Shown here piece by piece: positions 10,632 to 16,187 of a DNA stretch of 28,394 bases. A program made the position numbers and the translations under genes. The notes under the pieces were generated by a model. It did no database searches. It saw only the letters and a list, made by a program, of their open reading frames with translations, and was not told where the DNA came from. The stretch spans positions 1 through 28,394 of the forward strand of contig JBDRLB010000047.1 of NCBI GenBank assembly GCA_043813365.1. Direction: 5' to 3'. Position 1 is the stretch's first letter. Each line of letters begins with the position of its first letter. The DNA is from Candidatus Micrarchaeota archaeon (GTDB lineage: Archaea > Micrarchaeota > Micrarchaeia > Norongarragalinales > SBBD01).

Positions 10632-11084
10632 TTACTTAACCAATAACGCCGCCTGCTCGGGGTCGTATTTCCAATTCTTTGGAAGCTTCTTCCCGCGGTA
10701 ATAATTCACGAGCCGCTTGATCTTCGATTCGGTATCAACCAATTTCTTGCTGTTGAGCCGATCCTTCTTGTTCTCTGCCAGGTGCTTGCGCATCTTCACG
10801 GCCTTGCGGATGAGGTCTATCAAGTCTGAAGGGTATTTTGGGGAATGTCCCTTCTCCTTCAGCAGCTGGGAAACGGTTTTTCCGGTCATCGCCTTTATTG
10901 AGGGAACTGCAAATTGATCCCTGAGAATGAGGCCTATTTCCGCTTCCCTGCGGCCTTCCTTCGCTAGCTCAACCACTTTGTCCTCTATTTCCTCCTTGGA
11001 AATGGTCACCCACATGTTTGCGCTGGAACGGCTGGGCTTGTGGGACTTGCTCCTGCCCCTCCTGCGAGAATGCATCCTGGCCAT
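10632..11084 (-). CDS. rps15: 30S ribosomal protein uS15 (archaeal S15/S13e)
   Basis: MARMHSRRRGRSKS, IGLILRDQ, ESKIKRLVNYY, WKYDP. Confidence 0.97.
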   Translation of the reverse strand: MARMHSRRRGRSKSHKPSRSSANMWVTISKEEIEDKVVELAKEGRREAEIGLILRDQFAVPSIKAMTGKTVSQLLKEKGHSPKYPSDLIDLIRKAVKMRKHLAENKKDRLNSKKLVDTESKIKRLVNYYRGKKLPKNWKYDPEQAALLVK

Positions 11085-11192
11085 AAGCATCAACTTAGTC
11101 AATGCTTCTAATCGCTATAGGGAAATAACCCCCTAGCCATCTAAATCCATAGAACTAGAAGCTCAAATAGTTTCCAAGTAAAAGTATTTAAA
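11085..11192 (-). promoter_or_regulatory. rps15 promoter and structured 5' leader (candidate ribosomal leader)
   Basis: Minus-strand TTTAAATA at 11192-11185. The ~75-nt leader has several stems, including AAGCATTGAC-TAA-GTTGATGCTT directly against the ATG. Confidence 0.55.
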
Positions 11193-11231: not shown

Positions 11232-11873
11232 ATGGAGGACCGATCAATATTCATGGCAATGTTAGAAAGGCTCCAAAAGCGGCCGATTTGGCCGGAGATA
11301 GTTACAATTGTCAGCCAGAGTGGAAAACCCAGTCCCGCCATACAACAGGAATTGCGGGGGATCGGTTATAAAGTAAAAGCAAGTAGAGTCGTTTCTTTGC
11401 GTCAAAGATTGAGGAAAGCAGGCCATAAGGTGTATTCGGGAGGGGCGCCGGAAGGCGATATAGCAAAAAGGATCAAAAAGGATTTCGGCGAGCGGATAGC
11501 CCAGGAATTCGAAAAACATCCGGGGATCCACCCGGTCGAGCGCGCGAGCGCCCTAATTCCCCATCTGAGCGAAGTGCGGCTTTCCCAATTGACTGGTTTT
11601 GCCCGGAACACTGTCAGGAGCAGGCTGGCGATGCCTAGGAAATATATACCATCGGCCGGATCGGCTTTCGGCGAGTCAGCAAGGGCTGCAATTTCCCTTG
11701 CGCTTAAAAAAGGCACTCCAGACAAAACATTGCTTGCGAGGCTTAAAGAAACGACGGGAAGAGATTGGAACATCGATATGCTAGTTAGGGAAACACGAAA
11801 AAAAAGCAGCGCCTATTACAACCCAGATTTCAGCATCGAAAATCTTAGGGCCGTCCAAGAACGGAAGCAATAA
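11232..11873 (+). CDS. Orphan basic protein, possibly with HTH-like segments
   Basis: 213-aa ORF filling the rps15-trmJ gap. LSEVRLSQLTGFARNTVRSRL resembles a helix-turn-helix. Confidence 0.65.
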   Translation: MEDRSIFMAMLERLQKRPIWPEIVTIVSQSGKPSPAIQQELRGIGYKVKASRVVSLRQRLRKAGHKVYSGGAPEGDIAKRIKKDFGERIAQEFEKHPGIHPVERASALIPHLSEVRLSQLTGFARNTVRSRLAMPRKYIPSAGSAFGESARAAISLALKKGTPDKTLLARLKETTGRDWNIDMLVRETRKKSSAYYNPDFSIENLRAVQERKQ

Positions 11874-11905
11874 CGCCTGAAGAAAGCACCAACGCGTTAA
11901 TCTGA

Positions 11906-11962
11906 TTAACGTTTAATCCGCTTGCTTATGCCCCCTATCGCCACAAACAACGCCTTTATTTC
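11906..11962 (-). pseudogene. Synonymously recoded duplicate of the trmJ 3' end (18 codons plus stop)
   Basis: Translates to EIKALFVAIGGISKRIKR*, identical to the product of 12025-12081, with 17 differences in 57 nt. Confidence 0.93.
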
Positions 11963-12023
11963 CCTCGCCTTGCCCCTTTCTCCCGAGAAAGGTGCGATGG
12001 CTCCGCGCCAAAGAGGGAATTTG
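11960..12023. repeat. Double-hairpin dispersed element, homologous to part of the tRNA-Val intron
   Basis: Shares six ordered exact blocks (GCCTTG, CCTTTCT, AGAAAGG, CGATGGC, GCCAAAGA, AATTTG) with 15992-16045. Closed by the stem TTCCCTC/GAGGGAA. Confidence 0.85.
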
Positions 12024-12024
12024 A

Positions 12025-12715
12025 TCAGCGCTTGATTCTCTTGCTAATCCCTCCGATCGCAACAAAAAGGGCTTTGATCTCCTCATCCGATATCCTGGAT
12101 CGCTTCAGGATGTTCTCGAAGGCCCAGCCGACCTTCCTTTTGTCGCGGATTTCGAGCATCCCATCCAAAATTCCGGAAAAAATGCGCTGCATCACCTTGA
12201 CGTCCTTCCTCTTTGCGGGCCGGTAATGGATGAAGGTGCGGGAGGAAGTATAGAGCTCGTAAAGAAGTATTCCAACGGAATGGGAGAGGTTCAGGACGGC
12301 AAATTTGGGCGTTGAGGGGATTGTGACCAGAATGTCGCATTTTTTCAGGTCGGCAAGGGAGAGGCCGGTTCCCTCGTTCCCGAAAACAAGGGATACTTTG
12401 TCCTTTTTTGAAATTTTCGGGCAGAGATCCTTGGGGGAGATGCAGCTTTTGAGCGCATAGCCGAACCTTGCTGAGACACCGGTCGTTCCGACAATGATGT
12501 CCGTCCCTTCAGTTGCTTCCTCCAACGTGGAAACGATTTTCGCCTTTTTCAGTATGGTAACGCCGGATTTTGCAAACATCACAGCCTCCTGCGATTTGGG
12601 CGAGATTTGCGGCCTTACGAGCACGAGCTGCTTTGAGCCGAAATTGGCCATGATGCGGCACACCGAACCCAAATTTACAGGATATAATGGCTCAACGAGC
12701 ACGACCCCTCATCAT
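12025..12715 (-). CDS. trmJ: SPOUT RNA methyltransferase, TrmJ/TrmH family (start region appears frameshifted)
   Basis: LVEP..P.NLGSVCRIMANFG, VFGNEGTGLS, LNLSHSV.ILLYEL. The open frame begins at GTG 12702; ATG 12715 is out of frame by one base. Confidence 0.88.
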
Positions 12716-16096: not shown

Positions 16097-16187
16097 TCTC
16101 TGCGACGGGGGAAGTATCCCCCTCGACCAGATTGGTCGTTCCCCCTCTAGATGAATTTTTCGCTCCCCCCTCATTTATTGCGAAAAT

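Follow-up and report, generated by a model that had tools for sequence, protein, structure and literature searches.

The last 57 nt of a trmJ-like gene are present twice in a 28,394-nt stretch of DNA from Candidatus Micrarchaeota archaeon (NCBI GenBank assembly GCA_043813365.1, contig JBDRLB010000047.1), and the two copies, which are separated by a short hairpin element that we named E1, encode the same peptide with different codons. The whole stretch was analysed and is called the window; its genome is called G000. Direct observation covers the duplication, the silent-only divergence of the copies, the coincidence of the element with the breakpoint, the recurrence of this layout at other genes and at tRNA ends, the microhomology at the junctions and the conservation of the element. 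The layout of gene end, element and silently diverged second gene end was termed X-E-X. The trmJ locus is one instance of an X-E-X structure that recurs in this Micrarchaeota family. By analogy with prophage e14 at the icd gene of Escherichia coli, X-E-X may be a miniature gene-end replacement cassette without an open reading frame (ORF), a reading to which we give slightly less than an even chance.

The trmJ-like gene (12025..12702, minus strand, from the ORF list) encodes a SpoU-family RNA methyltransferase of 225 amino acids, which matched Pfam PF00588 (SpoU_methylase) with an E value of 2.8e-24. Its homologues carry TrmJ/YjtD family names in the source records, and a trmJ match was found in 37 of 40 relatives, G000 counted in. 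The reading frame ends with copy A (12025..12081, minus strand), which consists of the final 18 codons and TGA. Copy B (11906..11962, minus strand) contains the same 18 codons followed by TAA, is offset from copy A by 119 nt (2 mod 3) and is out of the trmJ frame. Copy A reads GAG ATC AAA ... CGC TGA and copy B GAA ATA AAG ... CGT TAA, and both encode EIKALFVAIGGISKRIKR*. The 17 differences in 57 nt were located at 14 third positions, two first positions (Leu and Arg codons) and one position of the stop codon (TGA/TAA). They comprise nine transitions and eight transversions of all kinds, all silent, and they changed 15 of the 19 codons with no replacement. An earlier note on this DNA had described the identical peptide, the 15 recoded codons and the 17 silent differences, and a reading of the sequence and a script both returned the same counts.

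Random placement of 17 substitutions on copy A gave an outcome with zero replacements in none of 20,000 trials. Four of the 18 sense codons are identical between the copies, against 6.5 expected when synonymous codons are drawn randomly from genome usage. Identical codons are no more frequent than this expectation, which indicates that the silent sites at trmJ are saturated. The ratio of silent to replacement changes excludes a gene accompanied by a neutrally decaying copy; both copies bear the mark of purifying selection, and copy B is not a decaying scar. The earlier note had argued that neutral decay would not give such a pattern, and the random placements, the saturation and the signs of selection on both copies all agree with it. 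It had also stated that both copies were translated in separate lineages until recently. A history of purifying selection in both stands, while separate lineages are only one way to read it.

Codon usage showed no consistent bias to either copy. At trmJ, no ATG, GTG or TTG start was found upstream of copy B in its own frame. When 11899-11963 was aligned with 12018-12082, the likeness continued for about 7 nt beyond the stops (TCAGATT past stop B at 11899..11905, minus strand, mirroring TCAAATT past stop A), so the duplicated unit extends slightly past the stop codon. A decayed second E1 behind copy B was considered and rejected: 15 of 21 nt just after the stop resemble the start of E1 (P ~0.07), and nothing similar follows farther on. 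The closest trmJ on record (83% identical) ends in ...GGIGKRIRK and differs at 3 of the final 18 residues. A metagenome scan with the trmJ protein gave 86 pattern matches, of which none was confirmed.

A 355-nt contig from public run X2 (record 8) spans 11716-12070 without a mismatch, from the end of a neighbouring orphan ORF through copy B and the element to 46 of the 57 nt of copy A. Because this contig bridges both copies without a mismatch, a chimeric join of two strains at the trmJ locus, which had been raised as a point to check, is unlikely. Run X2 is possibly the window's own source sample, so that the contig shows a join assembled from the reads of one run and not an independent replication. 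The G000 assembly is fragmented (78 contigs, 88.6% complete, 3% contamination) and E1 is a repeat, at which assembly or binning could have joined two strains. Such a join at E1 would still require one strain with E1 inside trmJ, and the same architecture was found in assemblies of other species; we regard an artefact as extremely improbable.

The 62-nt spacer between the copies (11963..12024, minus strand; conserved core 11966-12014) contains no ORF and is a copy of the structured repeat E1, which was found throughout the genome by repeat search, BLAST and alignment. A 301-nt query gave 10 genome matches including itself, the spacer being found at nine other places, also by BLAST; the breakpoint does coincide with a hairpin element, as the earlier note had it. 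The first 10 nt of the spacer (TCAAATTCCC) are like a motif upstream of other E1 copies. The core consists of TCTTTGGCGCGG-N-GCCAYCGCACCTTTCTT, a variable loop and AAGAAAGGGGCAAGGC. A three-helix model paired 97.9% of cells over nine copies, with two compensatory pairs, against only 52-63% when the 3' partners were slid by 1-3 columns; the model was built from the very sequences used to score it, which makes this weak support.

G000 contains at least 12 copies of E1 and at least 13 of related element families. The 26-nt core of E1 was found in nine of 10 family genomes, at 1-8 copies each and with 0-3 mismatches, mostly none. Exact E1 matches were present in 23 stretches of the species-genome collection (titles Candidatus Micrarchaeota / Norongarragalinales) and in 37 metagenome stretches. 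The trmJ proteins of the listed family genomes are 40-58% identical to that of the window, and prolyl-tRNA synthetase (ProRS) is 62-77% identical across family genomes, with third positions near saturation. A core that is nearly unchanged across genera with proteins only 45-75% identical shows that E1 is under strong constraint and no ordinary decaying repeat. Whatever the mechanism, such conservation singles out E1, an element of 50 nt, as a so far undescribed functional signal in RNA or DNA. Rfam searches of 23 loci with E1 or related elements, at E values up to 1-5, returned only tRNAs and chance matches and no family for E1. Host gene and E1 may lie on the same strand or on opposite strands. 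Many element copies without a duplication also adjoin stop codons, of same-strand or convergent genes, and element families 2 and 4 start with a conserved motif that contains TAA or TAG.

The whole genome was scanned for peptides repeated within 500 nt in any frame. The scan gave 882 raw runs, mostly repeats of surface proteins, and inspection of these left nine X-E-X loci besides trmJ (10 in all, trmJ being locus C47). Apart from trmJ and S15, the gene names are readings of translated sequences and not results of family searches. The nine loci are those of stalk protein P1 (C71, offset 142 nt), a FEN1-like gene with E1 on the opposite strand (C74, 110 nt), RNA polymerase B'' (C43, 108 nt), a DTD-like gene (C57, 139 nt), a TatD-like gene (C76, 88 nt), a deoxyhypusine-synthase-like gene (C53, 152 nt), two unnamed genes (C72, 107 nt; C63, 100 nt) and, at a 5' end including the ribosome-binding region, ProRS (C75, 132 nt). 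The elements at these loci are small, GC-rich hairpins of E1 or related families. In the 10 loci together, 171 codons contain 67 nucleotide differences, with 49 silent and 8 replacement codon changes, a ratio that resembles two functional alleles and not a gene with a decaying copy. Stop codons were exchanged between copies yet retained (TGA/TAA, TAA/TGA, TAG/TGA). By our reading of the P1 3' untranslated region and the rpoB''-rpoB' spacer, non-coding parts of the duplicated unit have diverged far beyond the coding replacement sites. The earlier note had proposed that a general mechanism should leave recoded gene ends beside the element elsewhere, and such ends were found at these nine loci and in relatives.

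A nucleotide test without a coding assumption detected gene-end duplication at 8 of 27 element sites in G000; a ninth flagged site was a repeated composite, and C43, C75 and one tRNA end scored weakly. The repeats are about 21-98 nt long, and the offsets (88-152 nt) fall in all three residues mod 3; lengths and offsets thus vary, in contrast to the fixed-length target duplication of a transposon or a miniature inverted-repeat transposable element (MITE). The frame of copy B is open through the element at seven of the eight 3'-end loci examined. Read-through or frameshifting was rejected as a general route to copy B because the offsets vary mod 3, and at trmJ no start precedes copy B.

Divergence between the copies forms a graded series across loci. 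The youngest are C53, with one difference in 96 nt, C63, where 34 of 34 nt are identical (C63:975-1108), and a 51-nt repeat in the related genome G002. C53:11130-11445 and the G002 locus L126, upstream of ProRS, were each seen to be a tandem X-E-X-E', in which the young element comes first; behind the second copy lies a further member of the same family, which is older and has diverged, with compensatory changes in its stem.

Among relatives, duplications flank 8 of 26 E1 loci, and 10 of 39 further distinct loci from related genomes and metagenome contigs. At L078, in another genus, the two protein ends differ at 10 positions, all silent, and at L169 a serine codon has switched between TCG and AGC. 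The 3' ends of tRNA genes, from the T-loop to the end, are likewise duplicated beside E1 in relatives, with 17/17, 18/18, 24/24 and 22/23 nt identical; this segment is the classic attachment-site geometry of integrating elements. In G000, a family-3 hairpin downstream of tRNA-Thr is followed by a copy of about 20 nt of the tRNA 3' end, again as X-E-X (G000:C70:11100-11235, L047).

E1, the second copy and the orphan are all missing from the trmJ locus of same-genus relatives (five loci, L010-L014), whose trmJ proteins are 55-58% identical to that of the window; nor do these relatives have the duplications at rpoB'', FEN1 and P1. The 5' duplication of ProRS with E1 is present in G000, G003 and G004 and absent in five other genomes. 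G003 and G004, whose ProRS proteins are 76.7% identical, share the junction of remnant and E1, and G008 has a duplication of the ProRS N-terminus with a different insert of 46 nt. ProRS of G000, G003 and G004 was seen to be preceded by a short ORF, a copy of the ProRS N-terminus followed by the reverse complement of E1 (G000:C75:17943-18100; L127, L130, L131), which in G000 stops 6 nt ahead of the real start.

At the junctions, the 3' end of the element shares 3-8 nt of microhomology with the gene just upstream of copy A (TCGATG at C72, ATG at C76, GAGG at trmJ), with a longer patch at C43, and the 5' side of the element meets the stop-codon region. The direction of change was assessed from comparisons of 27-51 nt each. 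At rpoB'', copy B, which abuts the rpoB' start, is identical to two relatives at 26/27 and 25/27 nt and copy A at 21-22/27; at this locus the changed copy is the translated one. At ProRS of G003, a manual comparison with the E1-free G001 gave 2 differences in the 30 nt of the promoter-proximal remnant and 8 in the 30 nt of the real start, all of them silent. The earlier note had suggested a search for the native allele at trmJ; copy A is nearer to G003 (41/51 nt, against 34/51 for copy B), a preference that is weak after ten comparisons. Either copy can be the native-looking one, depending on the locus.

As a gene-end replacement cassette, a hairpin element (E1 or a related family) would insert just past the stop codon with a second terminal segment directly after it. 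The unit of alternative gene end plus element would supply a working 3' end, the displaced native end would be left downstream, and the copy joined to the gene body would be the one translated. The lineage or population would switch between states with and without the element; under this proposed alternation both copies would be selected for the same peptide and would drift only at silent sites. A crossover at either end of the repeat would let either copy look native. The movement of the cassette, the alternation of states and the involvement of an enzyme are inferred. As at e14, a direct repeat of the gene terminus lies on both sides of the insert, the upstream copy is in frame, and the differences are mainly synonymous. 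An insertion at the end of an essential gene is normally lethal; at RNA polymerase B'', stalk protein P1, FEN1, ProRS and tRNAs it is repeatedly tolerated because the terminal segment is present twice, and the two copies both behave like sequences under selection.

Several results weigh against the cassette. An element of the e14 type encodes a recombinase or is linked to one; the 62-nt insert has no ORF, no recombinase was found linked to the elements, and the window contains no integrase, as the earlier note had stated. The 88.6% complete genome yielded no TnpB and no reverse transcriptase (RVT_1). No element-free trmJ allele or excision joint was seen in low-depth contigs from six runs of four studies, which leave much of the stretch uncovered. 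With a length of 88-152 nt, a free circle made of double-stranded DNA is physically awkward. Young identical loci (C53, C63, G002) fit a duplication on the spot equally well, and the ProRS junction shared by deeply diverged species could be an old insertion with a selected remnant and no cycling. The conservation of E1 also suggests that the element itself has a function, for which a purely selfish cassette would have no need.

The same holds for the one transposase that was considered as a mobiliser of E1 in the manner of repetitive extragenic palindromic (REP) sequences and REPINs. G000 carries a multi-copy IS200-like element that is bounded by a hairpin on either side and encodes a Y1 transposase with an HVHVV motif (Pfam Y1_Tnp, E = 2e-27; G000:C8:1-620, L135). 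Its 140-nt left flank recurs with 100% identity at nine contig ends, C8 included (C59, C50, C49, C18, C11, C43, C10, C62), and its 59-nt right flank, also with 100% identity, at seven further ones (C76, C65, C20, C71, C56, C53, C31). It is an insertion sequence of recent activity, and its multiple copies break the assembly. The Y1 transposase was rejected as the mobiliser: it is flanked by its own insertion-sequence ends, which do not match E1 or the related families, and Y1_Tnp was found in only five of 10 family genomes, against nine of 10 for E1. The sole tyrosine recombinase match (Phage_integrase) in the genome lies at C63:4212-4980 (L071:1126-1893) and is open at the contig end. It was noted on the same 5-kb contig as the X-E-X locus with the identical 34-nt repeat.

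The duplication could also have arisen in place and been kept by selection. A duplicative insertion of E1, by a staggered break or a microhomology-mediated template switch, would have copied the last 65 nt of trmJ. Copy A would code, copy B would be held at the nucleotide level for a role in cis (a 3' end or terminator for the orphan, or signals of neighbours), and all visible differences would be silent changes in copy A. The near-identity of the young loci and of the tRNA ends, the graded divergence across loci and the junction microhomology, which suits template switching, are all in keeping with such an origin. Where outgroups polarise the changes, at rpoB'' and ProRS, the remnant is ancestral-like and the functional copy carries the silent changes, and the junction common to G003 and G004 would mean that the remnant has stayed intact over a long time. 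At trmJ, however, copy B sits between convergent genes and has no evident role in cis, and 38 replacement positions that stayed fixed while about 17 silent ones turned over would need constraint on all 57 nt. The tail of the protein evolves fast, so zero change in copy A is unexpected, and silent steps within a single copy would hardly lead to the serine switch at L169. Duplication in place is, on this balance, possible but rather unlikely.

Between copy B and the promoter of the ribosomal protein S15 gene (10632..11102, minus strand, by Pfam) lies an orphan ORF of 213 amino acids (11232..11873, plus strand, from the ORF list), which is convergent with trmJ. It matched no Pfam family and has weak homologues in 3 of 39 other genomes. 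Its codon score is at the 9th percentile, and its GC content at third positions is 0.52, against 0.65-0.73 in the neighbours. It is absent beside trmJ in all five same-genus loci read, and in four of five same-genus relatives the S15 promoter follows within about 0-250 nt after trmJ. Internally, the orphan was noted to resemble a tandem pair that G005 encodes in a frame of 319 amino acids. A tandem helix-turn-helix DNA binder resembling a transposase N-terminus is a candidate identity, at the level of an atlas lead with a high score that is still under the atlas's own reliability bar.

The absence of the orphan between trmJ and S15 in same-genus loci, its few homologues and its codon use would all follow from a single import. 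A fragment from related Micrarchaeota, with the orphan and the last 57 nt of the donor's trmJ, would have been joined beside a resident E1, by homology on the ribosomal-protein side and an illegitimate join at the 3' end of the element, and copy B would be a young, untranslated passenger. The GAGG microhomology lies at the join, copy A is the nearer one to G003, with the reservation given above, and the ratio of silent to replacement changes equals that of diverged orthologues. An identical 18-residue tail is not an easy fit for a donor with saturated silent sites, which should differ in so fast-evolving a tail when a trmJ of 83% identity does so at 3 of 18 residues. The same architecture at nine other loci, with no imported gene behind copy B, makes a one-off event unneeded, and a join exactly at the element end at every locus is left unexplained. 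We consider the import improbable.

E1 also occurs within tRNA genes. The intron of tRNA-Thr(UGU), which the Rfam tRNA model places at the canonical site as an insert of 59 nt (G000:C70:10970-11098, L003:1457-1585), has a copy of E1 as its core, and this intron is present in the same-genus relative G005 (locus L081). By eye, a tRNA-Arg(GCG)-like gene was seen with its T-loop split by about 110 nt containing E1 and followed by the acceptor 3' strand (G000:C40:37780-37960, L002); neither ARAGORN nor the Rfam tRNA model called this gene. According to the cited accounts, Micrarchaeota have a splicing endonuclease of broad specificity (PMC3239211, PMC3488258). The tRNA-splicing endonuclease could cut 119 nt out of the trmJ mRNA between equivalent positions, so that spliced mRNA would end with copy B and unspliced mRNA with copy A and both would give the same protein. 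Cutting at equivalent positions is independent of frame, in agreement with offsets of all residues mod 3, and splicing would neatly account for selection on both copies. A scan for bulge-helix-bulge motifs at the exact offset found nothing beyond the expectation for the positions tried: the best score at trmJ was 12/14, against 13 for the tRNA-Thr control (P 0.20 against synonymous reshuffles). In 400 synonymous reshuffles per locus at seven loci, the motif score and the A-B duplex energy were unremarkable (P 0.06-1.0). The minimum-energy fold (221 nt, z -1.4) pairs each copy with itself and not A with B, and the two orientations of E1 relative to the host gene also speak against splicing, which we hold to be very unlikely.

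Homing guided by RNA would assign E1 and copy B the roles of scaffold and guide, the guide matching element-free alleles, and copy A would have diverged silently to escape self-targeting. E1 is extremely conserved and directly adjoins copy B, the rpoB'' remnant is the copy that matches relatives, and codon identity is at or below random at older loci (at C47, the value given for trmJ; at C75, 2 against 4.1 expected). Five older loci taken together have 20 identical codons against 22.5 expected, which is not below random. The genome yielded no TnpB-type nuclease, the C74 remnant lies on the other side of the element, and young identical loci would target themselves. Homing of this kind is highly improbable.

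Further features of E1 were recorded. In long variants, the apical loop contains a further, nested module made up of two hairpins (G000:C75:17958-18057, L072, L082, L091, L095, L099, L130). At the orthologous ProRS locus this module points one way in G003 and the other way in G004, as a second small element or an invertible segment would. Ahead of many E1 copies lies a 16-nt palindrome (TTGATTTGCAAATCAA-like), and farther upstream of these a conserved A/T hairpin with a GGCGCCGCAAAAGAAAAA block (G000:C11:5023-5110, C26, C72:29812-29840, C9; L073, L074, L082, L096, L100). These upstream sequences may serve a free-standing E1 gene as promoter or as a site for protein binding. The window contains a second hairpin element, of family 4 (16106-16147, minus strand), with 86% identity to the C76 copy over 42 nt. 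A 218-codon open frame stops 43 nt before this element, and no flanking duplication was detected there.

E1 and its relatives could, in a wider and distinctly doubtful extension, form a new class of miniature mobile cassettes without an ORF, with a synonymous copy of the host terminus as cargo. They would enter the ends of essential genes and tRNAs harmlessly, be kept by selection on both copies and, by insertion into the T-loop, open a route to non-canonical archaeal tRNA introns. In a bolder variant, the element and the adjoining copy may be a guide-like homing RNA, the translated copy being recoded for immunity. If the cassette exists, no smaller self-compensating insertion system would be known, and compact DPANN genomes would have a novel means of carrying RNA elements, mobile or functional. 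The link to tRNA introns suggests how non-canonical introns arise, in a way that can be tested. For annotation, X-E-X loci are liable to be miscalled as pseudogene fragments or assembly errors.

A full-text literature search, judged mainly by abstracts, turned up no account of archaeal gene ends that are duplicated and silently recoded next to hairpin repeats. The nearest counterpart is e14, which, in the account cited, is flanked by icd, extending into the prophage, and by the C-terminal fragment icdC, and whose excision leaves multiple synonymous changes and two D-to-E changes in icd (PMC13626634). There, too, an insert in the 3' part of a protein gene gives it a working end, the native end remains as a downstream direct repeat with mostly synonymous differences, and excision yields a chimeric functional gene (PMC13626634). 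However, e14 is about 15 kb long and has its own integrase and excision functions, whereas the insert at trmJ is a 62-nt hairpin without an ORF or a linked enzyme, and here the layout recurs at many genes of one genome, also at a 5' end, with repeats of about 21-98 nt. Phage 21 likewise integrates in E. coli icd.

Direct repeats of tRNA 3' parts that flank E1 in relatives, and the family-3 element at tRNA-Thr of G000, are reminiscent of the integrative elements of archaea and bacteria that target tRNA genes, with an attachment site extending from the anticodon loop or the T-loop to the 3' end. Such elements are kilobases long and carry an integrase; the inserts here measure 50-105 nt, and the same element family also occurs inside tRNA introns. 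As the core of the tRNA-Thr(UGU) intron, E1 resembles bulge-helix-bulge introns, among which the "transposed" introns of Thermoproteales have near-identical cores in different genes. Bulge-helix-bulge introns are not known to be flanked by duplicated exon ends, and at trmJ no splicing motif could be demonstrated.

Short GC-rich hairpins just past stops, many per genome and accompanied by a Y1 transposase, also recall REP/REPIN sequences and IS200/IS605-derived MITEs, and the many copies of one element family in the genome are as expected of transposons and MITEs. REP/REPIN sequences and hairpin MITEs of this origin insert without target duplication; moreover, the end hairpins of the IS200-like element are unlike E1, and conservation across genera is unusual for selfish repeats. 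Diversity-generating retroelements share the second C-terminal coding segment just downstream of a gene. In those systems it is the adenines of the template repeat that differ, with a changed protein, whereas here all differences are silent and of all types and no reverse transcriptase was found. A replacement gene end as such thus has precedents among prophages and integrative elements; the novelty lies in the miniature, highly conserved insert without an ORF, the recurrence at essential genes, tRNAs and one 5' end, the range of repeats from identical to saturated, and the tie to tRNA introns.

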